Position numbers and translations under genes: made by a program. Below are positions 33,729 through 46,943 of a DNA stretch of 64,000 nt, piece after piece (within the stretch, counting starts at the first letter, position 1; every line of letters starts with the position of its first letter). Under the pieces are notes generated by a model that did no database searches, was not told the origin of the DNA, and worked only from the letters and a program-made list of their open reading frames with translations. Source of the DNA: Gammaproteobacteria bacterium (GTDB lineage Bacteria; Pseudomonadota; Gammaproteobacteria; Arenicellales; JAANXG01); contig JAHEIO010000009.1 of NCBI GenBank assembly GCA_024639325.1, forward strand, positions 14 through 64,013. The letters are read 5' to 3'.

Positions 33729-34808
33729 TTACTCGGTGGTACGCGTCTGAGGCGTGGACCTCTGCGCCCGACGATAGCGCTGGGGACTCATGCCGGTCCA
33801 GTTGCGGAATGCGCGAGAAAACGCCGACAACTCGGAGTATCCGAGAAGCAGCGCAACCTCGGTCAGCGGCATGTCCGAGTCCTTGATGTAGTGCAGCGAC
33901 AGCTCCTGTCTGGCGGCGCGGACTAGGTCCTGGAACGACAACCCGTGTGCGTTCAGTTCGTTTTGAAACCGGCATTCGGAAATGCCAAACAGACGGGCGA
34001 TCTGTGCCAGGCTGGGGGGGGTAGTGCTGAGGTTCAGTTTTATCTGATTGCGAACGATGGAAGCGAAAGTCTCGGGATTGTCGTGAAGCTCGCAGCGAGA
34101 CCTCAGAAACGGTTCAATGATGGAAAAAAGGTACGGGTCCTGGTCGGGCATTCGAGCGTCCAGATCACTGCGCCTGAAAGCCATGGCATTGGTGCGCCGG
34201 CCGAACAGTACGGGTGCGCCGAATACGTTCTCGTGTTCCGAATCGAATTGCGGCGCAGGGTGCTCGAAACGGATCTCGAGTGGTGACCAGCCCTTGCCGA
34301 GAGCGCTGCGGAACACATTCCAGAACATTCCCATCGACAGCTCGGCATCCTGTCTGCGGTCGCTGATGCGCGGATCATAGATCCTGTAGCTGAGCCAGAG
34401 AATGTCGCCGTCCTGGATGAGACTGAAGCTAGACTGCTCCTGGTGCGCCGGAAAATAAGTCTCCATGTTGCGCAGCGCGGCGGAAAGCGTCGGGGAGCTG
34501 ATTGCGGCGTAGCCGATGGCACCCAGCTTTTTGGGCTCGAACTGTGCGCCGAAGTGAAGACCGAAATTGTCATTGCCGGTTTGCCGGGCGGCCTCGGTGA
34601 ACAGCTGACAGAACTGTTGCAGGCTGATCTCCCGTATTGGACTGCCGAGATCCTCGACACTGAGCGCGGTAGAGCCGAAGATCGAATCCACATCACCATG
34701 ATTTAGCTCGATCATATCGGCCACACCCGTTGCGGCTGACGCAAGTACTTTCGACGGCTCTGCAATAGTGTTCATATTGCCGCTGCTTGGCAGTTGCTTT
34801 CGATTCAA
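33729..34808 (-). CDS. AraC family transcriptional regulator (N-terminal ligand/arabinose-binding-like domain + C-terminal HTH_18)
   Basis: The C-terminal tandem HTH is SLAQIARLFGISECRFQNELN...PLTEVALLLGYSELSAFSRAFRNWTGMSPQRYR. It is divergent from the BMC/ABC operon. Start 34808 or ATG 34775. Confidence 0.9.
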   Translation of the reverse strand: MNRKQLPSSGNMNTIAEPSKVLASAATGVADMIELNHGDVDSIFGSTALSVEDLGSPIREISLQQFCQLFTEAARQTGNDNFGLHFGAQFEPKKLGAIGYAAISSPTLSAALRNMETYFPAHQEQSSFSLIQDGDILWLSYRIYDPRISDRRQDAELSMGMFWNVFRSALGKGWSPLEIRFEHPAPQFDSEHENVFGAPVLFGRRTNAMAFRRSDLDARMPDQDPYLFSIIEPFLRSRCELHDNPETFASIVRNQIKLNLSTTPPSLAQIARLFGISECRFQNELNAHGLSFQDLVRAARQELSLHYIKDSDMPLTEVALLLGYSELSAFSRAFRNWTGMSPQRYRRAQRSTPQTRTTE

Positions 34809-34928
34809 CCTGCTCCGAGCGGCATAGCGCCGTCCACATCACAGGCTTTAAGCGGTCAGAATGTCTTAATATTCACCCGAAATCAACCGGCGCGGCGGCG
34901 ATAACCAGGGACTTGGACGGGGAAATAC

Positions 34929-34989
34929 TGTCAAATTCTAGAGAAAAGCTGTCAAGCGGGGTTGCAATAAAGCGGGCAAACTCAATAAT
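34929..34989 (+). promoter_or_regulatory. direct TGTCAA repeats (21-bp spacing) abutting a sigma70-like promoter for the ABC/BMC operon
   Basis: TGTCAA at 34929-34934 and 34950-34955. TTGCAA (34962-34967), a 16-nt spacer, then AATAAT (34984-34989). AGGAGG RBS before ATG 35044. Also AAGCGGG at 34954 and 34970. Confidence 0.4.
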
Positions 34990-35043
34990 GGGGCGAAATA
35001 AAGAAGATAAATCTCAACAGCCATACCAAACAGGAGGATACAG

Positions 35044-36177
35044 ATGAAGCTCACCCGGAGACAATTCAATAAAACCGCAGCCGCCACCGTAGGCTTGGCC
35101 GCAATGAGCCCGCTTCACCGGGCCCTCGCAGATCGTAATGATCAGATGAATATACTGTGTTGGGAGGGGTACAACTCGGACGAAGTGCTGGGCCCTTTTC
35201 GCGACGCGAATGCCGGTGCCACGGTGCGGGCGGAGAGTGGAACGTCTGATCCGGACATGATCAACAAGCTCCGTGCAGGTGAAGTCAACGTATGGGACCT
35301 GATCAATGTGAACCAGCCCTGGGCAAGTGCACAGCTGTATCCCGAAAAATTGATTAAGCCGCTCAACAAGGATCGGTTCATGCCTTATTTCGAGAGGATG
35401 CTGCCGGAATTTTCGGGTCCATATCCCCTGGCCTTCGCCGACGACGGTGAACTCATCGGCATGCCCCAGCGGTATGGTCCGTTCAGCTTCGTGGTCAATA
35501 CGGACAAGATAAGCCGAGGCATGGCGGAAGATCAGGGTTGGAAACTGTTTCTGGATCCCGGTCTGAACCAGCGTTACGGTATCCTCACTTATGACAACTG
35601 GAACATCATGCACATGTGCCTGACCGGCGACCAAAATCCTTTCGACCCAATGGACGACGCCGGACTGGAGACCTTCAAGGGCACGGCGGAAGCCGTTTTT
35701 GCGGGCGCCAAGCTGCTGACGGACGACCTGGTGGCCATGAACACCGCGCTGATCAACGGGGAAATCGACGCTTATTTCACGGGGGGCACCTATACCGCGT
35801 CTCCCGCACGCCTGGATGGTGCGACCAATATCCGGGGAATTACGCCGAATTCCGGTCCGGTTGACGGCAAGGGCGGCGTTGTCTGGATCGAACTCACCTC
35901 GGCCGTAAACAATCCCGACCCGTCGATACTGGCGGAAGATTTCCTCGAATTCGTGCAGGATCCCGAAATCTGCAAGGCGGTGAGCTTTGCGGAGGGTACT
36001 TACAACCCCGTGAGCCAGATGGGCGATTCGAAGGTATTTGCCCAGTACGACGAAGATGAACTCGATGCAATACAGTGGGACAGCCTCGGCGAAGAGATGG
36101 CGCGATCGCTGGATTATCAGGTCGTTGCCTCCTACGACAAGCTGAACGAGATCTACAACGCTGCCAAGCGGGGTTGA
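35044..36177 (+). CDS. ABC transporter substrate-binding protein, PotD/PotF-like (polyamine/amine family), Tat signal
   Basis: MKLTRRQFNKTAAATVGLAAMSPLHRALA is a twin-arginine signal. The size and composition fit PotD-family receptors. Confidence 0.8.
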   Translation: MKLTRRQFNKTAAATVGLAAMSPLHRALADRNDQMNILCWEGYNSDEVLGPFRDANAGATVRAESGTSDPDMINKLRAGEVNVWDLINVNQPWASAQLYPEKLIKPLNKDRFMPYFERMLPEFSGPYPLAFADDGELIGMPQRYGPFSFVVNTDKISRGMAEDQGWKLFLDPGLNQRYGILTYDNWNIMHMCLTGDQNPFDPMDDAGLETFKGTAEAVFAGAKLLTDDLVAMNTALINGEIDAYFTGGTYTASPARLDGATNIRGITPNSGPVDGKGGVVWIELTSAVNNPDPSILAEDFLEFVQDPEICKAVSFAEGTYNPVSQMGDSKVFAQYDEDELDAIQWDSLGEEMARSLDYQVVASYDKLNEIYNAAKRG

Positions 36178-36197
36178 TACGCTCCTTCCAGGCCCTA

Positions 36198-36225
36198 CCG
36201 ACCGGGCAGCACGATGCCCGGTCGG
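36198..36225 (+). other. intercistronic stem-loop between the SBP and ATPase genes
   Basis: ccgaccgggc - agcacgat - gcccggtcgg is a perfect 10-bp stem (11 bp if a36208 pairs with t36215). There is no U tract. Confidence 0.6.
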
Positions 36226-36259
36226 GGACGCCTAAAGCCTGCTCAATAATCTTTCTCCC

Positions 36260-37345
36260 ATGCCGCCGGAACCGATACTTCGCCTTGAAAATATCGTCAA
36301 GCGCTTCGGCGCCTTTACGGCGCTCCACCATATTGATCTGGAAATCGATGAAGGCGAGTTTCTGACCATAGTCGGGCCGTCCGGCTGCGGTAAAACCACC
36401 CTGATCCGACTGCTGGTTGGAATCGATGAACCGACAGAAGGCCGAATCTGGTTGCGCGACAAGCGCATAGAAAAAGTGCCCGCAAATCTGCGGCCGACCT
36501 GCATGGTGTTTCAGTCGCTGGCGCTGTTCCCGCATCGTTCCGTGGGAGAAAACATAGAATTTCCATTGAAGATTCGCGGTGAGACTGCGTCTCGGCGCAA
36601 GGAACGGGCGCTAGAGCTGCTCGACCTGCTTCATTTGCCCCACGATTTCTATGACAAAAGGATCAACCAGTGCTCGGGCGGAGAGCGTCAGCGGATTGCG
36701 CTGGCACGGGCGTTGGCGTTCGATCCGGAAATCTTGTTCTTCGACGAACCGCTTTCAGCACTGGATTTCCGCTTGCGCAAAAAACTGGAAAAGGAACTCA
36801 AGGATCTTCACGAACGCACGGGCAAAACTTTCGTGTACATTACCCACAGCCTGGAAGAGGCGATGGTCATGTCAGACCGAATCGCCATCATGAGACAGGG
36901 GCGCTTCGAGCAGATCGCCGTGACGGACGAGATTTATGCGCGTCCGATCAGCAGGTTCGTGGCCGAGTTCATGGGCGAGGTGAATCTGTTCGACGTGGAG
37001 GGAACGGCTTCGGGCGGCCTGCGCGGGCGAGGTGTGGAAATACAAGCCAACGCCACGGGTGGGGGTACGGAGCTCACTTTGCCGCAAGGGACGCAAGGCG
37101 CCCTGATGGTGCGTCCGGAGTCGGTGCGATTTCTCCACCCGGGCCAAACCGCGGATTTTATCGTGCGGGGGATTCTACGCGCGTCCTACGCGCTTGGTTC
37201 CCGCACGCAGTACAAGGTCGAATCCTCCGAAGGAATCGAACTCGCGGTGGAAAAGCTCAGGCAGGACCGGTTTATGGGAAACGTGGGGGACGAGGTCGTG
37301 CTGGGTTTCGATATGCAGAACACGCATATGATCAGGGAGCGCTAG
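36260..37345 (+). CDS. ABC transporter ATP-binding protein (PotA-like, with C-terminal TOBE-like domain)
   Basis: Walker A GPSGCGKTT, signature CSGGERQR, Walker B ILFFDEPLSALD. 361 aa. Confidence 0.9.
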   Translation: MPPEPILRLENIVKRFGAFTALHHIDLEIDEGEFLTIVGPSGCGKTTLIRLLVGIDEPTEGRIWLRDKRIEKVPANLRPTCMVFQSLALFPHRSVGENIEFPLKIRGETASRRKERALELLDLLHLPHDFYDKRINQCSGGERQRIALARALAFDPEILFFDEPLSALDFRLRKKLEKELKDLHERTGKTFVYITHSLEEAMVMSDRIAIMRQGRFEQIAVTDEIYARPISRFVAEFMGEVNLFDVEGTASGGLRGRGVEIQANATGGGTELTLPQGTQGALMVRPESVRFLHPGQTADFIVRGILRASYALGSRTQYKVESSEGIELAVEKLRQDRFMGNVGDEVVLGFDMQNTHMIRER

Positions 37346-37349
37346 CGGT

Positions 37350-38204
37350 TTGGAACGTTCAGACCGCAAAATCGGCTTTCTGAGCGCCGTTCCGATCACC
37401 GTGATCCTGATGCTCAGCTTCACGGCGCCTCTGCTGGTGGTCCTGCTGTTTTCCGTGATGCCTCCGAAGGTGTTTACCCTTGCTCACGTGCCGGACTTTT
37501 CGTCCTACGGCGTGCTCTTCAGCCAGGGCTACTACCGGTCCCTGCTCTGGTCCCTTGGCACGGCGCTGGCGGCAACGGTCCTGTTGTTTCTGATTTGCTG
37601 GCCGCTGGCTTTTGCCATGGCCAAGGTGTTCAAGGGATTCACTCTGTTCATTACCGTCGCCGTGGTAATCACCCTGTTCGTGTCCGAGAATATCAGGTTG
37701 TTCGGTTGGGTTCTTACCCTGATGAAGGGGGGGTTGATCGAAGGGCATCTCCGGGCATGGGTGGGCTGGAGTTTCGAGGGCGCGCTCTACAACGTTCCCG
37801 TGATCATCTTCGGACTGGTTTACGTCTATTTTCCGTTCATGCTGTTTCCTCTGGTCCAGGGGATTTCAATGGTCCCGGATGACGCGCGCCAGGCGGCGGC
37901 GGACCTGGGCGCAACCAGACGGCAGATATTCTGGGAAGTCGATCTACCGCTGTCGGCGCCGGGCATCGTCATCGGATCGCTGCTGACATTCGTGCTGGGT
38001 GCGGGGGCACTGGCCGAATCCAAGCTGCTTGGCGGTCAGGCGGTTATCGTTATCGCCGATGAGATCGAAACGGCTTTCACCTACGGTCAGAACTGGCCTT
38101 TGGGATCGGCCTTATCGATCATACTCATCATTATTATCGGGTCTTTGGCGGTGTTCGGGGTCAGCCGGGTGGATCTGGACAAGATAATGGGCAGGCGGCG
38201 CTGA
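37350..38204 (+). CDS. ABC transporter permease (PotB-like)
   Basis: 284 aa with 6 TM segments and an EAA-type loop DDARQAAADLGATRRQIFWEV. TTG start 4 nt after the upstream stop. Confidence 0.85.
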   Translation: MERSDRKIGFLSAVPITVILMLSFTAPLLVVLLFSVMPPKVFTLAHVPDFSSYGVLFSQGYYRSLLWSLGTALAATVLLFLICWPLAFAMAKVFKGFTLFITVAVVITLFVSENIRLFGWVLTLMKGGLIEGHLRAWVGWSFEGALYNVPVIIFGLVYVYFPFMLFPLVQGISMVPDDARQAAADLGATRRQIFWEVDLPLSAPGIVIGSLLTFVLGAGALAESKLLGGQAVIVIADEIETAFTYGQNWPLGSALSIILIIIIGSLAVFGVSRVDLDKIMGRRR

Positions 38205-39016
38205 TGCGGATCGGCCGAGCGACACGGATTGCACTCTATCTCTATGGCGTTCTTGTCATAGCGTTTCTGTATCTTCCTCTCCTGTCAGTGGGATTTGCTT
38301 CGGTGTCCAAGGCGCGGTACCTGACATTTCCCATAAAACGCTACGCTTTTCAGTGGTACGGCAAGGCGCTGGAGAGCTACACCGTCCAGGATCTGCTGTG
38401 GACGTCGTTGAGCATTGCCGGCATCGTGACCGTGATTAGCATGATCGTCGGTTTTTTCGGTGCCTTGGCGTTCGCCAGGTATCAGTGGCGTTTTCGCGGC
38501 GTGTTCCAGAAGCTCATCCTGTTGCCCATCTTTTTCCCCCAGGCCGTCCTTGGGCTGGCCTTGTTGATGTGGTTCAACTCGATTGGCATCATTCCGGACT
38601 GGAAGACGGCGGTGGTGGCTCATCTCGTCTGGATATCGCCGATTGCGACGCTGGTCATCGCAATTCGTGCGTACAGTTTTGATCCCGCGCTTGAAGAGGC
38701 CGCCCGCGACATGGGAGCCTCGACCTGGGTGGTATTGAAGGAGGTAACCGGACCGCTGCTGATGCCGGGTGTGATTTCGGCGGGATTGTTTTCATTCCTG
38801 TTGAGCTGGGGAAACTTCCCTTTGTCATTGTTTACAACCGGGGCCGATTCAACATTGCCGGAATGGCTTTATGCCAAGATGGTGTCGGGTTATTCCCCGC
38901 TGGTGCCCACCGTGGGCATACTTTCCATCGCGACGTCGATGATACTCTTGATCGTCGCGTTTACTATTTACTGGTTCGTCCGCTCGGCTCGCGAAAGGGG
39001 TGCGCGGATCATTTGA
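38204..39016 (+). CDS. ABC transporter permease (PotC-like)
   Basis: 270 aa with 6 TM segments and an EAA-type loop LEEAARDMGASTWVVLKEV. The ATG overlaps the upstream TGA by 1 nt. Confidence 0.85.
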   Translation: MRIGRATRIALYLYGVLVIAFLYLPLLSVGFASVSKARYLTFPIKRYAFQWYGKALESYTVQDLLWTSLSIAGIVTVISMIVGFFGALAFARYQWRFRGVFQKLILLPIFFPQAVLGLALLMWFNSIGIIPDWKTAVVAHLVWISPIATLVIAIRAYSFDPALEEAARDMGASTWVVLKEVTGPLLMPGVISAGLFSFLLSWGNFPLSLFTTGADSTLPEWLYAKMVSGYSPLVPTVGILSIATSMILLIVAFTIYWFVRSARERGARII

Positions 39017-39038
39017 CACCAATTACGGAGGTGCTGAT

Positions 39039-39818
39039 ATGTTGACATCCATCAAGGATCGTTCGGTCATCGTTACCGGCGGTTCCAAAGGTATAGGTAA
39101 GGGCATCGCCCAGGTGTTTGCCGCGCAGGGGGCCAAGGTCATGATCGCCGCGCGGGGCGAAGTGGCCGGCGCCGCCGCCGCCGCCGAATTACAGGCGGCC
39201 GGTGGAACGGCGGATTTCTGCCGGTGCGACGTCTCCGACTGGGACTCCGTGCAGCACCTTGTGGACAGGACGGTTGACGCTTTCGGCGGACTCGACGTCA
39301 TGTGTGCGAACGCCGGGGCCTTTCCCCAGACCAAAATGATCGATATGGATCCCGAGGAGTGGGACGACGTCATGGCTACTAATCTCAAGAGCGCATTTCT
39401 GTGCGTCAAGGCCTGTATCCCGCAGTTCGACAAAGCGGGCGGAGGCCGAGTAGTCTTGACGTCTTCCATTACCGGTCCGGTTACGGGCTATCCCGGTTGG
39501 TCGCACTACGGTGCATCGAAATCCGGACAGCTGGGTTTTTTGAAAACCGCGTGCATGGAACTGTCAAAATACAACGTTACCATCAACGCGGTGATGCCGG
39601 GCAACATCTACACCGAGGGGCTGAAGGATCTGGGCCAGGATTATCTGAACACCATGGCGGCCTCAATTCCGCTCAAGCGGCTCGGCGACGTCAAGGATAT
39701 TGGCAACGCCGCTCTGTTCTTCGCCTCTGACGAAGCGGGGTACATCACCGGCCAGACCATGGTGGTCGATGGCGGCCAGATCATACCCGAGTCCCTGGAA
39801 GCCATCGAGGAAATCTGA
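39039..39818 (+). CDS. short-chain dehydrogenase/reductase (candidate amino-ketone / amino-alcohol dehydrogenase)
   Basis: GGAGG RBS before ATG 39039. TGGSKGIGKG cofactor motif, NAG, and the catalytic YGASK. Confidence 0.85.
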   Translation: MLTSIKDRSVIVTGGSKGIGKGIAQVFAAQGAKVMIAARGEVAGAAAAAELQAAGGTADFCRCDVSDWDSVQHLVDRTVDAFGGLDVMCANAGAFPQTKMIDMDPEEWDDVMATNLKSAFLCVKACIPQFDKAGGGRVVLTSSITGPVTGYPGWSHYGASKSGQLGFLKTACMELSKYNVTINAVMPGNIYTEGLKDLGQDYLNTMAASIPLKRLGDVKDIGNAALFFASDEAGYITGQTMVVDGGQIIPESLEAIEEI

Positions 39819-39850
39819 CTTCATCACGGATCGTTAGCCGGGATACGACA

Positions 39851-40858
39851 ATGCCAGAAAGTGCCACGCCTTACGATGTAATGATAGAGCGCCTGGGCGT
39901 TCTTGCCAATCAGTCCCTCGGGCTATGGGATTTGCCGGAGGGCGCAACGGCGCGCCTGATCAACGTATCGGAAAATGCCACCTACCTCGTCGAGGCTCCG
40001 AACGGGTTCAAATCGATTCTTCGAGTGCATCGCGAAGACTATCACACACGCAACGCAATCAGTTGCGAGCACGCCTGGTCCAAAGCGCTCGACGAAGAGG
40101 GCGGGGTCCACACTCCGGATATTCTTCCGGGCCGTGACGGCAGCGGCATCCAGACCGCTTCGGTGGATGGTTTACCCGGCGAACGCCACATGGCCATGTT
40201 CGAGTTCCTGGAAGGCGAACATCCCGAAGAGGACGCGGACCACCTGGTGGAGTCGTTCGAGGAATTGGGCGAGATAGCCGCACGGACGCACAATCATTCC
40301 GTGGCATGGGTGCGCCCGGCCAATTTCGAACGGCTCGTTTGGGACCTCGACACCGTATTCGGTCCGCGGGCGTACTGGGGTGACTGGCGAGATGCGCCCG
40401 GCGTAACGGAGCAGATAAAATCGCTGCTCGAGCGGCTTCAGTCCGTCGTCGTTCGGCGCTTGACAGAATTTGGCAAAGGGGCTGAGCGATTCGGCCTGAT
40501 CCACGCCGACATGCGGCTGGCCAACCTGATCATAAGCGACGGAACAACCAGGCTCATCGATTTCGATGATTGCGGGCTGGGTTGGTTCATGTATGACTTC
40601 GCTGCCGGGATCAGCTTCATGGAGGACCATCCACAGATACCCGCTCTGAAGGACGCGTGGGTTCGGGGTTACAGAAAAGTACGCGGGCTGAGCGCCGCAG
40701 ATGAAGATGAGATCGATACCTTCGTCATGCTGCGCCGCCTGGCCCTGCTGGCCTGGATAGGCTCCCATATCGAGGTCGATACGGCAAAGGAGCTTGCACC
40801 CGCATTCGCACCCGTCACGGCGGAGTTGGCGGAAATTTATCTTGCCCATCAGGAATGA
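39851..40858 (+). CDS. APH/choline-kinase-fold phosphotransferase (candidate amino-alcohol kinase)
   Basis: Brenner motif HADMRLANL and the metal-binding IDFDD. 335 aa. It occupies the same position and has the same fold as the amino-propanol kinase of RMM-type BMC loci (established literature). Confidence 0.8.
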   Translation: MPESATPYDVMIERLGVLANQSLGLWDLPEGATARLINVSENATYLVEAPNGFKSILRVHREDYHTRNAISCEHAWSKALDEEGGVHTPDILPGRDGSGIQTASVDGLPGERHMAMFEFLEGEHPEEDADHLVESFEELGEIAARTHNHSVAWVRPANFERLVWDLDTVFGPRAYWGDWRDAPGVTEQIKSLLERLQSVVVRRLTEFGKGAERFGLIHADMRLANLIISDGTTRLIDFDDCGLGWFMYDFAAGISFMEDHPQIPALKDAWVRGYRKVRGLSAADEDEIDTFVMLRRLALLAWIGSHIEVDTAKELAPAFAPVTAELAEIYLAHQE

Positions 40859-40888
40859 GCGATCGCCGCCGAGCGCTTCGACTACCAA

Positions 40889-40914
40889 TGTCAATTCGCC
40901 GCAGTTAGTGTCAA
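40889..40914 (+). promoter_or_regulatory. second pair of direct TGTCAA repeats (20-bp spacing) in the 253-nt gap upstream of the aminotransferase-AldDh-shell genes
   Basis: TGTCAA at 40889-40894 and 40909-40914, in the same orientation as the pair at 34929/34950. Confidence 0.35.
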
Positions 40915-41111
40915 GTTTCAAAGCCGCGCCTGTGCCACGCTAGATCTCGGAATGCATCGAGGCGGCGCCGTCTGGGCACTTTTCGCGGTCACATCACTTC
41001 ATCCTTCGGCAAGCCGTGACCATGCCGCGGCACCTGCGGCAAAGTGCCTTTAACGTCGTCAGGCCGCATCGATGCCGCCGCGCACTGGGTAACGAACCGG
41101 GAGGCAACACC

Positions 41112-42383
41112 ATGAGCGAAGCAAAACTCGAATTCCTGGATAGATCGAGGGCATTCTGGAATCCCGGGAAGACGCAGGATTGGCAGGACATGGGCGTCGA
41201 CCTCGTGATCGACCGGCGGGAGGGATATTACCTGTTCGATATGGATGGACGGCGCCTTATCGATCTGCATTTGAATGGAGGCACGTACAATTTGGGCCAT
41301 CGGAATCCTGAACTGGTGGAGGCGCTGAAGGCCGGCAGTGCCCGTTTCGATATGGGTAATCACCATTTCCCCGCACTTGCCCGCACCGCGCTGGCCGAAG
41401 CGCTTGCAGCCTGCGCACCGGCACCGAATATGGTGTACACCGCGTACGGTTCGGGTGGTGGTGAAGCCATCGATATTGCCATCAAAACCGCCCGCCACGC
41501 CAAGCAAAGACGCAAGATCGTGTCCATCGTCAAGGCCTACCACGGGCACACGGGTCTGGCGCTGAAAACCGGTGACGACCGGTTTTCCAAACTGTTTCTG
41601 TCAGAGGATACGCTGGGTGAGTTCGTGCAGGTCCCGTTCAACGACCTCAATGCCATGGAAGATGCCCTGCGCGGGCGGGACGTCGCAGCCGTAATCATGG
41701 AAACCATCCCGGCAACCTACGGTTTTCCGATGCCGCAGGAGGGTTATCTGCCCAATGTCAAGAAGCTCTGCGAAAAGTACGATGCCCTGTACATTGCCGA
41801 CGAGGTTCAGACGGGCCTGATGCGATGCGGTGAGCTCTGGGCATGCACGAAATACGGCATCGAGCCGGACATCATGGTGACGGGCAAGGGCATCGGCGGC
41901 GGCATGTATCCGATCGCCTGCACCTGTATCGGTGAGCATTGCGGCGGCTGGCTGACTGAAGATGGATTCGGCCACATCTCCACCGGCGGCGGCGCCGAAC
42001 TCGGTTGCATCGTGGCGATGAAAGTCCTCGAGATCGTGCAGCGCCCGGAAGTGAGGACCATGGTTCGATACGTTTCCGACTACATGCGCGCGGGGCTGGA
42101 CCGGATCATGACCGAGTACCCCGACTTCTTCATTGGGATCCGTCAGCACGGCGTCGTGATGGGCCTCGAGTTCAATCACGAGCAGGGAGCAAAACCGGTG
42201 ATGAAAAACCTATACGACAACGGCGTGTGGGCTATTTTTTCGACCCTCGATCCACGCGTGCTGCAGTTCAAGCCAGGCCTGCTCATGACCCAGGCCGACT
42301 GTGAAGAAGTATTGCGGCGGGTCGAGATCGGCATCGGTCTCGCCCGGGATGAAGTCATGGGCCGCCACAGGAAGAGCGCCTGA
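41112..42383 (+). CDS. class-III aminotransferase-fold PLP enzyme (candidate amino-alcohol-phosphate phospho-lyase)
   Basis: Start ATG 41112 (MSEAKLEF). ADEVQTGLMRCG and VTGKGIGGG (PLP-Lys region). About 423 aa. Phospho-lyases of amino-alcohol phosphates share this fold. Confidence 0.8.
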   Translation: MSEAKLEFLDRSRAFWNPGKTQDWQDMGVDLVIDRREGYYLFDMDGRRLIDLHLNGGTYNLGHRNPELVEALKAGSARFDMGNHHFPALARTALAEALAACAPAPNMVYTAYGSGGGEAIDIAIKTARHAKQRRKIVSIVKAYHGHTGLALKTGDDRFSKLFLSEDTLGEFVQVPFNDLNAMEDALRGRDVAAVIMETIPATYGFPMPQEGYLPNVKKLCEKYDALYIADEVQTGLMRCGELWACTKYGIEPDIMVTGKGIGGGMYPIACTCIGEHCGGWLTEDGFGHISTGGGAELGCIVAMKVLEIVQRPEVRTMVRYVSDYMRAGLDRIMTEYPDFFIGIRQHGVVMGLEFNHEQGAKPVMKNLYDNGVWAIFSTLDPRVLQFKPGLLMTQADCEEVLRRVEIGIGLARDEVMGRHRKSA

Positions 42384-43954
42384 TGGAACCCCAAGCGAGG
42401 ACCCTGGTCGATATATCGGGCAGCCACGCCGCGCTGGCGGGACGCGCCGACATGGTGCTGGAAAGGGCGCGCTGGGCGGCGGAAGTTTTCCAGCGTTATG
42501 ATCGTGAGTCGACCATGGCGATAGCCGATGCCGTTGCCGCGGCGGCACACGATAGCGCCGAAAGATTCGCCGACTGGGCGGTGCGGGAAACGGGATTCGG
42601 CGTTGCTGCACACAAGAAACTTAAGAACCAGTTGACGTCCCGGCCTTTGGTGGATTTTTATCGAAACGACGACTACGTCAATCCGCGCATCGACGAGGCG
42701 CGAAAGATCGTCGAGATCCCCCGGCCCGCCGGCGTAATCCTGGCGCTTACTCCTTCGACCAACCCCATAGCCACGCTCAACTACAAGGTTCTGATCTCGC
42801 TGATGACGCGCAACGCGATCGTTATCAGCCCGCATCCGGCGGCGCGCGAATGCAGCGTCGATGCGGCCCGCGCACTCGGCGAGGCCGCGATGGATGCGGG
42901 CGCCCCCGACGGCGCCATCCAGATCATAGAGAATCCCGGCATTCCTCTAGTCGAAGAACTCATGGTGTCGCCCAAGACCTCGGTGATCCTCGCCACCGGC
43001 GGCACGGCGATGGTGCGTTCCGCCTACTCGTCGTCGAATCCGGCAATTGGCGTCGGACCCGGCAACGCACCGGTGTTCGTTGATTCAACCGCGGACATCG
43101 ACAAGGCGGCAAAGCGTATCGTGGAGTCGAAATCTTTCGACAACTCGGCGTTGTGTACGAACGAGAGCGTCCTGATTACCCTGGAAGACGTCGATGCGCG
43201 CTTGCGCCGTTCGTTCAAGCAGGCAAAGGCTTACATTTGCGACGCCGACGACGTCGACCGCTTGCGACGGTATTTGTTTCACGATCGTGGATTCAATATC
43301 GAATGCATTGGTCGGGATGCCGCGTGGATTGCACAGGAATGCGGTATCCGTGTACCCGACGGCACGCTGGTTCTGCTGGCGCCTATTGCGCAGATTGGCG
43401 TTGAGGAGCCGCTTTCGAGGGAGAAACTGTGTCCGGTGCTTGCCTATCATGTGGTCAAGCGCCGCAACCAGGCGATCACGCAGGCTCGCGCGGTGCTGCG
43501 CCTTGCCGGCGCCGGCCACTCCGCCGCCGTGCACGCCATGGACGAGCAGGTGGCGATGGCATTTGCGTCCGCGGTGGAGGCTTATCGGGTCGTCGTGAAT
43601 ACCCCCTGTACCCAGGGCGCCGCCGGTTTTCAGACCGCGCTGGCACCTACTTTCACCGTGGGCACCGGATTTTACGGCCGCAGTTCAATTGGAGAGAATA
43701 TAGGGCCAGGACACCTCGTGCACTGGACTCGCCTGGCCTATAACTCGGATGCGTCTGAATATTTCGGCAACTACCGCGGGTTGAAACCGGGTTTCAGCGG
43801 CCCGCTGCCCGAGGCGCCCTCCGACGGTGTGCCGGGATCCAACGGATACCGGGCGAGACGCGCGGAAGCCGATGCCGGTGTTTTTTCCGGCGTAACGCGT
43901 GAGGAGTTGCGGCGCATGATTGCCGAAGAACTTCGCGCGGTGCTTAGGAAGTAG
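42383..43954 (+). CDS. CoA-acylating aldehyde dehydrogenase (EutE/PduP-type) with C-terminal encapsulation-peptide-like tail
   Basis: ILATGGTAMVRSAYSSSNPAIGVGPGNAPV and the catalytic-Cys segment FDNSALCTNES. A Pro/Gly-rich linker is followed by the amphipathic TREELRRMIAEELRAVLRK at the C-terminus. The ATG overlaps the upstream TGA. Confidence 0.9.
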   Translation: MEPQARTLVDISGSHAALAGRADMVLERARWAAEVFQRYDRESTMAIADAVAAAAHDSAERFADWAVRETGFGVAAHKKLKNQLTSRPLVDFYRNDDYVNPRIDEARKIVEIPRPAGVILALTPSTNPIATLNYKVLISLMTRNAIVISPHPAARECSVDAARALGEAAMDAGAPDGAIQIIENPGIPLVEELMVSPKTSVILATGGTAMVRSAYSSSNPAIGVGPGNAPVFVDSTADIDKAAKRIVESKSFDNSALCTNESVLITLEDVDARLRRSFKQAKAYICDADDVDRLRRYLFHDRGFNIECIGRDAAWIAQECGIRVPDGTLVLLAPIAQIGVEEPLSREKLCPVLAYHVVKRRNQAITQARAVLRLAGAGHSAAVHAMDEQVAMAFASAVEAYRVVVNTPCTQGAAGFQTALAPTFTVGTGFYGRSSIGENIGPGHLVHWTRLAYNSDASEYFGNYRGLKPGFSGPLPEAPSDGVPGSNGYRARRAEADAGVFSGVTREELRRMIAEELRAVLRK

Positions 43955-43963
43955 GCGGACAGC

Positions 43964-44575
43964 ATGGCGGAACTGCGTTCGTTCATTTTTATAGATCAGT
44001 TGCAGCCGCAGACGCTGGCCTATATCGCGACCTGGATGCGGGGTTCATTGCCGCGTCGAAACATGGCCGCACAAATTATCGAGGTATCGCCCGGACTGGA
44101 TATCGAGGCGCTGACCGATGTTGCACTCAAGGGCGCCAACATCAAAGTCGGACTGCTCGTAGTCGAGCGCCAGTATGGGTACTTGGAGTTTCACTCCCGA
44201 TCCACCGCCGAGGTCAAGGCCGGCGCGCAGGCCCTGCTGGATGCGCTGGGCGCGAGCGTCGAGGATGCCACGCCACCACAGATTCTCGGTTCCAAGGTCG
44301 TTACTCGCGTCGACCACCAGCATGCCTTTCTGATCAATCGCAACAAGCTTGGTTCCATGGTGCTTGGCAACGAGTCGCTGTACCTGCTGGAGTGTCGTCC
44401 CGCGTCTTACGCCATTTTGGCCTGCAACGAAGCGGAGAAAGAAGCCAACATCAAAGTCATCGACTACCGAATGATCGGCGCCAACGGGCGGCTCTATCTC
44501 TCCGGCGACGAGGCCGAGATCCGAAATGCGCGCAGCGTAGCCGAGGCTGTACTTCACGAAGGCGGGGTGGCCTAG
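43964..44575 (+). CDS. tandem BMC-domain shell protein (BMC-T type) 1
   Basis: 203 aa with two BMC-like halves (IIEVSPGLDIEALTDVALKGANIKV... and LLECRPASYAILACNEAEKEANIKV...). The N-terminus MAELRSFIFIDQLQPQ is as I recall for RMM-locus BMC-T proteins. Confidence 0.8.
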   Translation: MAELRSFIFIDQLQPQTLAYIATWMRGSLPRRNMAAQIIEVSPGLDIEALTDVALKGANIKVGLLVVERQYGYLEFHSRSTAEVKAGAQALLDALGASVEDATPPQILGSKVVTRVDHQHAFLINRNKLGSMVLGNESLYLLECRPASYAILACNEAEKEANIKVIDYRMIGANGRLYLSGDEAEIRNARSVAEAVLHEGGVA

Positions 44576-44578
44576 GAA

Positions 44579-45028
44579 ATGGTCGACGAACTGCGCCAGG
44601 CGATCCGAAGCATTCTGCTCGAGGAGCTTGCTGCACATGGAGTCGGGCCGACTCCGCAGTCCGCGCCGGGGATTCACGTCGAGGAGGTCGAGATCAATTC
44701 CGACGTAGACCTGGCACAATTCGTTCGACGCTTGCTGCAGCTCGCCCGCGACGGCGGCGCACTCTCGGCAATCGAATCGGGGCGCCACGTATTCAGGTTG
44801 CGCACAGCCAGTGCCCCGCAGCGGTCGGTGCAACCGCCGGTGGCATCCAGTCGAACGCCGGTTGGCGGTACGATGACGTTCGACGCGGGCCTCATCACTG
44901 AAAAACAGGTTCGCAATCTTCCTGAAAATATCTCAGTGGTAAGGGTGGGCGGCAGCGTGCGGCTCACGCCGCTGGCCAGCGATGCCATGCGGCGCGCGGG
45001 GATTAAAATAGAAAAGGTGACATCATGA
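44579..45028 (+). CDS. BMC-associated protein of unknown function with N-terminal encapsulation-peptide-like helix
   Basis: 149 aa: an amphipathic MVDELRQAIRSILLEELAA, then a Pro/Ser-rich linker, then a ~50-aa C-terminal module LITEKQVRNLPENISVVRVGGSVRLTPLASDAMRRAGIKIEKV. The start is 3 nt after the BMC-T stop and the end overlaps the BMC-P start (ATGA). Confidence 0.7.
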   Translation: MVDELRQAIRSILLEELAAHGVGPTPQSAPGIHVEEVEINSDVDLAQFVRRLLQLARDGGALSAIESGRHVFRLRTASAPQRSVQPPVASSRTPVGGTMTFDAGLITEKQVRNLPENISVVRVGGSVRLTPLASDAMRRAGIKIEKVTS

Positions 45029-45267
45029 TTCGTGGACGCATAACGGGCCGAATCTGGTCCAGCAAACACATCGAAACCCTGCCCAACGGAGCGCTTCTTG
45101 AAGTGACTCTCGATACCGGCGGCAGTCTGATCGCGCTGGATCCGCTCGGATGCGCCGAAGGTGAAGCCGTTCTCGTGACTCAGGGCTCGGTTGCCGCGGG
45201 CTACTTTACCAAGTCCAAAGCACCGATAGATGCGCTGATCATCGGGTCTATCGATGAACAGGGCTGA
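45025..45267 (+). CDS. BMC-P pentameric vertex protein (EutN/CcmL family)
   Basis: 80 aa. MIRGRITGRIWSSKHIETLPNGALLEV...ALDPLGCAEGEAVLVTQGSVAA...PIDALIIGSID is collinear with EutN/CcmL. Confidence 0.9.
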   Translation: MIRGRITGRIWSSKHIETLPNGALLEVTLDTGGSLIALDPLGCAEGEAVLVTQGSVAAGYFTKSKAPIDALIIGSIDEQG

Positions 45268-45324
45268 CCCAGGCGCAGCTATATTGTCAACGGCCAACAG
45301 GCCACAACTTTAGGAGAACACAAC

Positions 45325-45609
45325 ATGTCGAATCAGGCTATCGGAATGATCGAGACCCGCGGCTACGTTCCGGCGCTGGCCAGCGCCGACGCGATGGTCA
45401 AAGCAGCCAATGTCGAAATCGTATCACGCAATGAAGTCGGAGGCGGACTGGTATCCGTAGTGATCAAGGGCGACGTCGGTGCCGTCAAGGCGGCGACGGA
45501 AGCCGGCTCCGAGGCGGCTAATCAGGTTGGCGAAGTGGTCGCAGTACACGTTATTCCCAGGCCCCACCAGGACCTGAACCAGCATTTCAGTCTGGCGGCC
45601 GGCAAGTGA
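45325..45609 (+). CDS. BMC-H hexameric shell protein (PduA/EutM/CcmK-like)
   Basis: 94 aa. Canonical AIGMIETRGYVPALASADAMVKAANVEIV...GGGLVSVVIKGDVGAVKAATEAG..A. AGGAG RBS. Confidence 0.95.
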   Translation: MSNQAIGMIETRGYVPALASADAMVKAANVEIVSRNEVGGGLVSVVIKGDVGAVKAATEAGSEAANQVGEVVAVHVIPRPHQDLNQHFSLAAGK

Positions 45610-45642
45610 CGCCGGGTTGGGTCGGGAGAGGCGAGTGCTGAC

Positions 45643-46272
45643 ATGACCGAGTTGAGGGTCTATCTGCCAATCCACGATCTGCAATCCCAGTTCTCCGCTT
45701 ATCTGAGCACGCCGATGCGGGCCAGGGGATATCCGCCTTTCGAAGGACAGCACAGTCTTATCATCGAGGTGTCTCCGGCGCTCGCCATACACCGAATATC
45801 AGACCTCGCCCTGAAGGCGGCGCCCGATATGGAACCGGGCATTCTGTTCACTGAAAGACAGTACGGATTGCTGGAACTGCATTCTTCGGATCGGGATGAG
45901 CTGGATGCGGCGGGCAAGGCGATCCTCAAGGGTATAGGCGCAATTGCAGGAGACCAGCTCGCGCCCGCCATCCTGTTCGAAGACATCATCGAGAATTTAT
46001 CGGACCAGCACGCAATCATTTTGAACCGCTCCCGCTCTGCCTCCATGCTGGTCCCGGGCTCGTCGCTGCTTCTTTACGAAATGAGCCCCGCGCTGTTCGC
46101 CTGTGTCGCCGCCAACGAAGCGGAACGCGCCGCGCCTGCAGCGATCCTCAACGACGTTCAGATGATGGGGGTGTCGGGTCGCATCTTCATGTCCGGCGAT
46201 ACCGGTGACCTGACCAGGGCGCGGGATGCCATTACGCGGACGCTGAAAGCGGTCAAGGGGCGCAAGAAATGA
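45643..46272 (+). CDS. tandem BMC-domain shell protein (BMC-T type) 2, paralog of 43964..44575
   Basis: 209 aa. It shares MxELR...I..LQ.Q..AY..T.MR, IIEVSPAL, ERQYGLLELHS, DQHAIILNR and NEAER with BMC-T 1. 13 of the first 27 residues are identical by hand alignment. Confidence 0.8.
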   Translation: MTELRVYLPIHDLQSQFSAYLSTPMRARGYPPFEGQHSLIIEVSPALAIHRISDLALKAAPDMEPGILFTERQYGLLELHSSDRDELDAAGKAILKGIGAIAGDQLAPAILFEDIIENLSDQHAIILNRSRSASMLVPGSSLLLYEMSPALFACVAANEAERAAPAAILNDVQMMGVSGRIFMSGDTGDLTRARDAITRTLKAVKGRKK

Positions 46273-46943
46273 GCAACTGGAAAAACGCTTACAGGTCATT
46301 TTATTACGCGAACGCCGACGAGCCGGAAGACCCGGTTCTGGCGCCGCGCGAGACCGCGCTGCTGGTGATCGATATTCAGAATACCTACATGGAGGTGCCC
46401 GGCGATGCCGCCGAGGCAGCACGATGGGGCCCGTTTTTTTCCAGGATGCACGAAACGGTTATTCCCAATACGGCTGCGTTGATCGAATTGTGCAGAGCAA
46501 GGAACATCGAGGTCATCTTCGCGCGCATTGCTTGCCTTACGGAAGACGGCCGGGATCGGTCTCTGAGCCAGAAGAAACCCGGCTTCAATTACCTGTTGCT
46601 GCCGAAGGACCGCGAGGACAGCCAGCTTGTGCCCCAACTACAGCCCAAAGGCGACGAGATAGTCATGCTGAAGACCACGGACAGCGCTTTGACAGGTTCG
46701 AACCTGCGGTTGATCCTGAACAACATGGGCATTCGAAACGTCGTCTTGGCGGGTATTTTTACGGATCAATGCGTCAGCAGCACAGTGCGCAGTCTCGCTG
46801 ACGAAAGCTTCAACGTACTGGTGGTCGACGACTGCTGCGCCGCGGCGACAATGGAACTGCACGACCACGAACTGGAAATCATAAATATGATCTACTGTCA
46901 CGTGGTTCAGTCCGAGGATATCCGGTCTTTCATCCGTAATTGA
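46269..46943 (+). CDS. isochorismatase-family cysteine hydrolase
   Basis: 224 aa. Candidate triad elements are LLVIDIQN (Asp), LKTTDSA (Lys) and FTDQCVSST (Cys). ATGA overlap with the BMC-T 2 stop. Confidence 0.85.
   Translation: MSNWKNAYRSFYYANADEPEDPVLAPRETALLVIDIQNTYMEVPGDAAEAARWGPFFSRMHETVIPNTAALIELCRARNIEVIFARIACLTEDGRDRSLSQKKPGFNYLLLPKDREDSQLVPQLQPKGDEIVMLKTTDSALTGSNLRLILNNMGIRNVVLAGIFTDQCVSSTVRSLADESFNVLVVDDCCAAATMELHDHELEIINMIYCHVVQSEDIRSFIRN

Follow-up and report, generated by a model that had tools for sequence, protein, structure and literature searches.

The window analysed here, a stretch of 64,000 nucleotides from a gammaproteobacterium of the order Arenicellales (assembly GCA_024639325.1, contig JAHEIO010000009.1), carries a bacterial microcompartment (BMC) locus in which two non-coding gaps each hold a pair of direct TGTCAA repeats. 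The nearest genomes were uncultured Gammaproteobacteria and Arenicellales metagenome-assembled genomes. A regulator of the AraC/XylS family is encoded divergently from two predicted units, the first for amino-alcohol uptake and cytosolic activation, starting with the gene of a periplasmic binding protein (SBP), and the second for lumen enzymes and shell (Table 1). By its gene content, the locus is of the RMM/AAUM type (aminoacetone / 1-amino-2-propanol). The shell set of this type was present, with PF00936 (BMC-H), PF03319 (BMC-P) and two CcmP-like BMC-T proteins, the latter scoring 206 and 179 bits, under the NCBIfam model cut-off of 340; so was the enzyme set, with an SDR dehydrogenase, an APH-type kinase, a class-III aminotransferase-fold enzyme and an acylating aldehyde dehydrogenase (AldDh). 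This content agrees with published descriptions of RMM1 and RMM2 (Axen 2014, PMC4207490; Sutter 2021, supplement).

Table 1. Genes, repeats and predicted promoter elements of the microcompartment locus (coordinates in the window; HTH, helix-turn-helix; RBS, ribosome-binding site).
Feature	Position	Strand	Remarks
AraC/XylS-family regulator	33729..34775	-	PF12625 N-terminal ligand/dimerisation domain, C-terminal double HTH
Putative regulator promoter	34858..34886	-	TTGATT (34886-34881), 17-nt spacer, CATTCT (34863-34858); conserved blocks
Candidate operator O1, distal half-site TGTCAA	34929..34934	+	Extended form TGTCAAATT; conserved upstream of SBP gene
Candidate operator O1, proximal half-site TGTCAAG(C)	34950..34956	+	21 bp from distal
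Possible alternative sigma-70-like promoter TTGCAA-16-AATAAT	34962..34989	+	Consensus scan; start ~34996 if used
-10-like CAAACT	34977..34982	+	21 nt past O1 proximal repeat; predicted start ~34989
Unit 1, uptake and cytosolic activation (predicted)	35044..40858	+	
SBP	35044-36177	+	Unit 1
ABC ATPase with TOBE_2	36260-37345	+	Unit 1
Two permeases	37350-39016	+	Unit 1
SDR dehydrogenase	39000-39818	+	Unit 1
APH-family kinase	39851-40858	+	Unit 1
Gap 2, 253 nt	40859-41111		Non-coding
Candidate operator O2, distal half-site TGTCAA	40889..40894	+	Extended form TGTCAATTC
Candidate operator O2, proximal half-site TGTCAAG	40909..40915	+	20 bp from distal
Extended -10-like TGcCACGCT	40933..40941	+	Hexamer 40936-40941; predicted start ~40948
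Lineage-specific leader insertion, ~150 nt	40943..41095	+	Between O2 promoter and RBS; distance comparison
Unit 2, lumen enzymes and shell (predicted)	41112..46943	+	
Class-III aminotransferase-fold enzyme	41112-42383	+	Unit 2
Acylating AldDh	42383-43954	+	Unit 2
CcmP-like BMC-T, 149-aa unknown protein, BMC-P, BMC-H, second BMC-T	43964-46272	+	Unit 2
Isochorismatase-family hydrolase	46269-46943	+	Unit 2

A scan of the window placed forward-strand copies of TGTCAA at 34929 and 34950, 21 bp apart, in the gap between the regulator and the transporter genes (gap 1); at 40889 and 40909, 20 bp apart, in the gap upstream of the aminotransferase-like gene (gap 2); and at 45285. These coordinates, the two spacings and the shared orientation were all as given in an earlier note on this DNA, which had read the pairs as AraC operators, and its description of the 253-nt gap 2 as the only long internal gap of the locus was also borne out. 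No other forward-strand TGTCAA pairs were found within 60 bp of each other across the 64 kb. The hexamer occurred 24 times on the two strands of the window, with 23.6 copies expected; its abundance is at chance level, and the signal therefore lies in its arrangement. Such a count is what would be seen if the pairs were two coincidences in AT-richer intergenic DNA, noticed post hoc, and some paired hexamer was indeed present in about 20-24% of single shuffled gaps. Nevertheless, TGTCAA was the sole hexamer to form a direct pair at 19-22 bp in both gaps, and when the two gaps were shuffled 20,000 times with dinucleotide content preserved, none of the shuffles paired any hexamer in both.

A minus-strand pair at 39013/39042 was rejected as a site and attributed to chance, its spacing being 29 bp and its location within coding sequence. 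Scanned with up to two mismatches allowed, the whole window yielded no further candidate except one in the SDR coding region, which has no -10 element. The single copy at 45285-45290, upstream of the BMC-H gene, is present as the earlier note had reported, but it was absent from 14 orthologous BMC-P/BMC-H junctions; it was rejected as a site and is best read as a chance copy.

To follow the repeats in other genomes, 4 genome loci and 80 metagenome loci were fetched via the regulator. The ortholog set comprised 45 non-redundant loci (463 kb) from Alpha- and Gammaproteobacteria, with regulators 47-92% identical to that of the window and several gene orders, and was compared with 35 paralog loci (regulator 40-46% identity, 482 kb) and two plasmid control loci. 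The regulator was present in all ortholog loci. Both pairs were found, with the same 21-bp and 20-bp spacing, in loci L002 and L004 (regulator 85% and 77% identical, respectively), and the first pair in L003, whose contig stops before the second. In the gap-1 alignment, CTGTCAAAT and CTGTCAAGC were invariant blocks, against a mean column identity of 64%.

Over the 45 ortholog loci, 32 direct TGTCAA pairs at 20-22 bp were counted where 0.11 were expected, which ranked this hexamer first among all hexamers. Every pair was intergenic and co-oriented with the downstream gene, and pairs were conserved even where the surrounding non-coding DNA had diverged completely and gene order differed. Exact pairs were seen in most loci with a regulator at least 47-48% identical and in none of those with the 40-46% identical paralogs: the count was 0 in the 35 paralog loci, and likewise 0 in the two plasmid loci, which have aminotransferase homologs 51-58% identical to that of the window and other regulators. 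The phylogenetic footprinting that the earlier note had proposed thus came out with both pairs conserved, spacing and orientation included, and its estimate that the arrangement was unlikely by chance agrees with the shuffles as well as with the ortholog counts. Conservation of this kind already refutes coincidence, to which we give practically no weight.

When the proteins of the window were mapped onto these loci by tblastn, at least four gene orders were distinguished. The regulator was divergent from the transporter-SDR-kinase genes, from the kinase gene or from the SDR-kinase genes, with the aminotransferase gene following in each case (as aminotransferase-AldDh-shell in the first); it was convergent with the shell operon; or it was divergent from the AldDh-shell genes, with the aminotransferase and kinase genes elsewhere. 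Across all gene orders, pairs with at most one mismatch lay upstream of a regulon gene, co-oriented with it and 68-236 nt from its start. Sites preceded the SBP gene in about 26 of the 29 loci covering that region (up to two mismatches being allowed in three of them), the aminotransferase-like gene in 18 of the 19 loci covering it, AldDh in 7 loci where it is split from the aminotransferase, and the SDR or kinase gene in 5 loci. The gene set of unit 1 was also found next after the regulator in L001-L004, L007, L009, L017, L020, L042, L086, and L090. One locus (L087, Rhodospirillaceae bacterium KN72, GCA_012926505.1) had no shell genes within 10 kb and yet retained the regulator together with the transporter and the site preceding the SBP gene. 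Hence it is the regulator that the motif accompanies. Between 522 and 9798, this locus carries the regulator, transporter, SDR, kinase and isochorismatase genes, then subunits of a B12-dependent diol dehydratase, while aminotransferase, AldDh and shell genes were absent within 10 kb, which recalls the "RMM2/PDU2" association (Axen 2014, PMC4207490). Both sites were also found in strains available in culture, namely Stappia indica (GCA_020177335.1) and Arhodomonas sp. SL1 (GCA_052060015.1).

The motif was refined on 34 exact non-redundant sites. Its consensus is TGTCAArTy-N11-13-TGTCAAGC, an operator-like element of 27-28 bp with a distal half-site TGTCAA-r-T-y and a proximal half-site TGTCAA-G-C-n-G-G, in which position +6 was G in all 34 sites. 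The most common spacing was 21 bp (26 sites), while 3 sites had 22 bp and 5 had 20 bp. The latter were all aminotransferase promoters of the window's clade, the 20-bp spacing being common to L001, L002, L004, L007, and L009. Nothing was conserved between the repeats, including at +10 to +15.

This last result bears on whether the repeats, as real operators, might serve another factor, such as a PhoB/OmpR-type response regulator or another global regulator, rather than the adjacent AraC protein. Pho boxes are direct repeats of CTGTCAT, and the core CTGTCA found here resembles a Pho-box half-site; moreover, the pathway passes via a phosphorylated intermediate, and the association of the motif with the AraC gene is correlative. 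A Pho box would nevertheless consist of CTGTCAT-type repeats with an 11-bp period, whereas the period here is 20-22 bp with no intermediate repeat. The motif occurred wherever the AraC ortholog did, across classes and gene orders, and was absent at paralogs and control loci, while no response-regulator gene was conserved in the loci. We therefore consider another factor highly improbable.

The position of the repeats relative to a predicted -10 element was also largely constant. In 29 of the 34 sites, a -10-like hexamer begins 21-22 nt past the proximal repeat, its A and T (positions 2 and 6, four apart) being set at +28 or +29 relative to where that repeat starts; other offsets were found in 0-6 sites. 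A G was frequent two or three nucleotides upstream of the hexamer. The -35 position reads AAGCnG, and no TTGACA-like -35 was seen at the expected place. The fixed distance to the -10-like element would thus put the proximal repeat at about -40 to -35. As read from these sites, with start sites predicted, the anatomy would be that of an activator-dependent class II promoter.

In gap 1, the earlier note had pointed to a promoter-like TTGCAA-16-AATAAT. This sequence is present, but the family-wide -10 element is CAAACT (34977-82); AATAAT (34984-34989) was conserved within the window's clade only and matches a minor peak (6 sites) at +35. It is a possible alternative or second gap-1 promoter. In gap 2, the extended -10-like element of the window reads TGcCACGCT and has the same offset as at the other sites; TGtCATCGT, TGtCACTCT and TGtCACGCT occur at O2-type sites among L004, L002, L007 and L009.

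Overall, it is very likely that the two TGTCAA pairs are operators of the adjacent AraC/XylS regulator, through which it would activate two promoters of the microcompartment locus. Probably carrying an amine-derived inducer in its PF12625 domain, the regulator would bind as a dimer to the two co-oriented half-sites about two helical turns apart. With the proximal half-site at about -40 to -35, a recognisable -10 and no -35 consensus, the bound dimer would be placed for class II recruitment of RNA polymerase. The first promoter would drive the transporter-SDR-kinase genes and the second, internal one the aminotransferase-like lyase, AldDh and shell genes, so that one signal acting via two promoters would switch on uptake and activation together with organelle formation. 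This agrees with the reading of the pairs as AraC operators in the earlier note, since the motif tracks regulator orthologs and is absent from paralog and control loci. The same note had divided the locus into two co-regulated units, and the -10-like element at fixed distance speaks for an internal promoter ahead of the aminotransferase-like gene and hence for this division.

The adjacent regulator, once bound, could instead work as a repressor or by forming a loop, and O2 would then be a roadblock or modulator in one long transcript rather than an internal promoter. Unliganded AraC itself represses by looping, and no terminator separates the kinase gene from O2. In 18 loci, however, the -10-like hexamer stands at a fixed 21-22 nt past the proximal repeat of O2-type sites, and in the rearranged loci L035, L039, L044, L045, and L073 the same site stands at the head of operons without any co-oriented gene before them from which transcription could read through; the absence of a -35 consensus is likewise typical of activator-dependent promoters. 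Repression or looping is thus improbable, and activation by the adjacent regulator is preferred.

Several observations weigh against activation of two promoters by this regulator. In L009 and L045 the region before the SBP gene showed no recognisable site, nor did that before the aminotransferase-like gene in L040. The link between motif and regulator is correlative, because all loci were retrieved via the regulator or the aminotransferase-like gene, and the microcompartment loci of this type that were compared all carry the regulator, unlike the actinobacterial ones with a GntR regulator. Among the best 120 matches of a homolog search with the aminotransferase-like protein, only proteobacterial proteins, more than 82% identical, were found; the two plasmid loci are a weaker control than actinobacterial loci would be. 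The TTGCAA-16-AATAAT element would, if used, move the gap-1 geometry by 7 bp in the window's clade. Finally, no terminator-like site was found before O2; read-through from the first promoter is therefore possible, and the internal O2 promoter may merely supplement it.

Class II activators of the AraC/XylS family, such as AraC at I1-I2 of pBAD and XylS at Pm, bind direct half-sites about 21 bp apart, the proximal one at the -35 region. The present sites share with them co-oriented half-sites at about 21 bp, a poor -35, and a regulator with a ligand/dimerisation domain and a double HTH that is encoded divergently beside its target; the proximal half-site may likewise abut or overlap the -35 region. 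They differ from AraC I1-I2 and XylS sites in half-site sequence, in having one strong box of 6-8 bp per half-site rather than two, and in a spacing that tolerates 20, 21 or 22 bp. In place of the AraC cupin, the regulator has PF12625 as its N-terminal domain.

The closest sequence-level analogue checked was FeaR of E. coli, which controls aromatic amine and aldehyde catabolism; both regulators belong to amine-to-aldehyde pathways. The feaB promoter (TGTCAcagctgacAAAgcgaaTGTCAcagcgaaaAAA) and the tynA promoter (TGGCA...TGGCA) both carry 21-bp direct repeats with a TGnCA box. The FeaR operator reportedly consists of two copies of TGNCA-N8-AAA (Zeng and Spiro 2013). Unlike it, the present sites have no conserved AAA box 8 nt past the TGTCA box: information content was at most about 0.2 bits at +11 to +13 past the distal box (where the matrix ends, at +13) and at +12 to +24 past the proximal box. 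The feaB proximal box starts 37 nt before a -10-like TACACT, versus 27-28 nt here, and the two regulators share just 31% identity over the second HTH. FeaR is activated by an aldehyde product (PMC11542736). By analogy, though this is one of the less likely readings, the present regulator might respond to a carbonyl intermediate further down the pathway instead of the amino alcohol.

AraC-family regulators at the edge of microcompartment loci have precedents. EutR, the activator of EUT1, is encoded at the edge of its metabolosome locus and responds to substrate, and the present regulator resembles EutR and PocR in family and location; the PocR and EutR operators are not known to be related to the TGTCAA operator. 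PocR, the AraC-family regulator at the edge of the PDU locus, also responds to substrate (Axen 2014, PMC4207490). Its sensor is a PocR domain, unlike the PF12625 domain found here, and the match of the present regulator to the NCBIfam PocR model spans the HTH alone (E = 2.5e-6).

The regulator itself matched PF12625 (2.5e-48), as well as PF12833 and PF00165 at residues 270-347, and scored 298.7 bits against the NCBIfam QhpR equivalog model (cut-off 250). Although its gene lies where the earlier note had placed it (33729..34808), position 34808 is a TTG to which the mechanical open reading frame (ORF) extends, and the ATG at 34775, conserved in L002 and L004, is likely to be the start. Upstream of it, the blocks CAGAATGTCyTAA and AAATCAA were invariant in the window, L002, L003, and L004, and were not conserved in more distant loci. 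As a third operator, these blocks were rejected owing to their 19-bp spacing, a poor match and restriction to the window's clade; they more likely represent the regulator's own promoter.

The present regulator is like QhpR in passing the equivalog model and in its tie to amine catabolism. Unlike QhpR, which is linked to the qhp operon (quinohemoprotein amine dehydrogenase), it is surrounded by genes for the amino-alcohol ABC transporter, SDR, kinase and microcompartment, and no qhp genes were seen adjoining it in any locus examined. On account of these neighbours, the database name "QhpR" appears over-extended and misleading for this clade.

Gap 2 owes much of its length to a lineage-specific insertion of about 150 nt. 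From the distal repeat to the ATG there are 223 nt in the window and 212 nt in L001, versus 78-112 nt in 17 other loci; the ATG of the aminotransferase gene, at 41112, is kept in L002 and L004. In an alignment anchored on the repeats and a shared string, the repeats, the -10 and this string (CCTGTGCCACGCT) aligned with L004, and the extra nucleotides of the window followed that point. This GC-rich, partly palindromic insertion was shared with L001 only, at 87% identity, whereas the genes on either side are 97-99% identical. No further copy was found in the window or in any locus compared, it folded no better than shuffled sequences (z = 0.07), and an Rfam scan of 30-50 kb at E <= 1 gave no RNA family, hence no known riboswitch in either gap. 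A REP/MITE element (repetitive extragenic palindrome or miniature inverted-repeat transposable element) and a structured leader were both rejected for 40943-41095, as there were no repeats and no fold above background, and we read the segment as a lineage-specific leader expansion without demonstrated function.

Some sites departed from the common arrangement. Three tandem half-sites at 20-21 bp intervals were observed in L030 (9837/9816/9795) and L045 (8101/8081/8060), which suggests that higher-order or alternative occupancy is possible. The distal half-site was TGTTAA upstream of the SBP gene in L012, L014, L018, L019, L020, L086, L087, and L090, and upstream of the SDR gene in L031. The exact TGTCAA pair was kept at the aminotransferase promoter in L020, L031, L086, and L090, which are those of the TGTTAA loci that cover it, and a difference in affinity between the two promoters is possible. 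In Stappia indica (L090, 9921-9972), the publicly annotated kinase ORF runs over the O2 operator and its -10: either the 3' end of the kinase gene overlaps the putative internal promoter or the stop has been called too late. In L046-L084, the paralogous regulator clade (40-46% identity) has as neighbours an APH-type kinase and a class-III aminotransferase that is only distantly related (about 24% identical), with neither shell genes nor TGTCAA pairs; this clade presumably uses a different operator for a non-compartmentalised pathway. The SBP of the window had no Pfam or NCBIfam match at the thresholds used, and the orthologs in L087 and L090 are recorded with no more than weak matches to SBP_bac_1 and SBP_bac_6. 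It is a divergent amine-binding protein of the PotD/PotF kind, and its ligand could hint at the substrate that is imported.

The locus shares with the actinobacterial RMM1/AAUM loci of Mycobacterium smegmatis and Rhodococcus the SDR, the APH-type kinase, the class-III aminotransferase-fold enzyme and AldDh, as well as one BMC-H, one BMC-P and two CcmP-like BMC-T (Sutter 2021, supplement). Actinobacterial RMM1 loci have a GntR-family regulator and an amino-acid permease (Axen 2014, PMC4207490), in contrast to the AraC-family regulator with its TGTCAA operator and the PotABCD-like ABC importer found here. The GntR regulator marks the actinobacterial subtype and is not a defining trait of the RMM/AAUM locus type. 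No AraC regulator or operator is mentioned for RMM/AAUM by Sutter 2021, and in the literature searched on QhpR, AraC regulation and the FeaR operator, no description of this regulator-operator pair was found. The proteobacterial form of RMM/AAUM is already catalogued, no description of its regulation was found in the literature searched, and the pair is a well-defined example of a familiar operator class, solid and unsurprising.

Beyond this, the regulator and its TGTCAA operator might constitute an autonomous induction module for this organelle, one now dispersed over Alpha- and Gammaproteobacteria, in which the differences between promoters are tuned rather than due to drift. These differences are a 21-bp spacing with an often imperfect TGTTAA distal half-site at transporter promoters, and exact repeats at 20, 21 or 22 bp at enzyme and shell promoters. 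The inducer threshold or the timing of the response would then differ between uptake/activation and shell assembly; we regard this as an unlikely, though conceivable, extension.

Given a defined activator, a consensus and two predicted promoters, Stappia indica and Arhodomonas sp. SL1 would allow direct tests of what induces the organelle and when it forms, and the operator consensus would make regulon members predictable from sequence alone. For microcompartment engineering, the pair would offer an orthogonal, amine-responsive expression switch.

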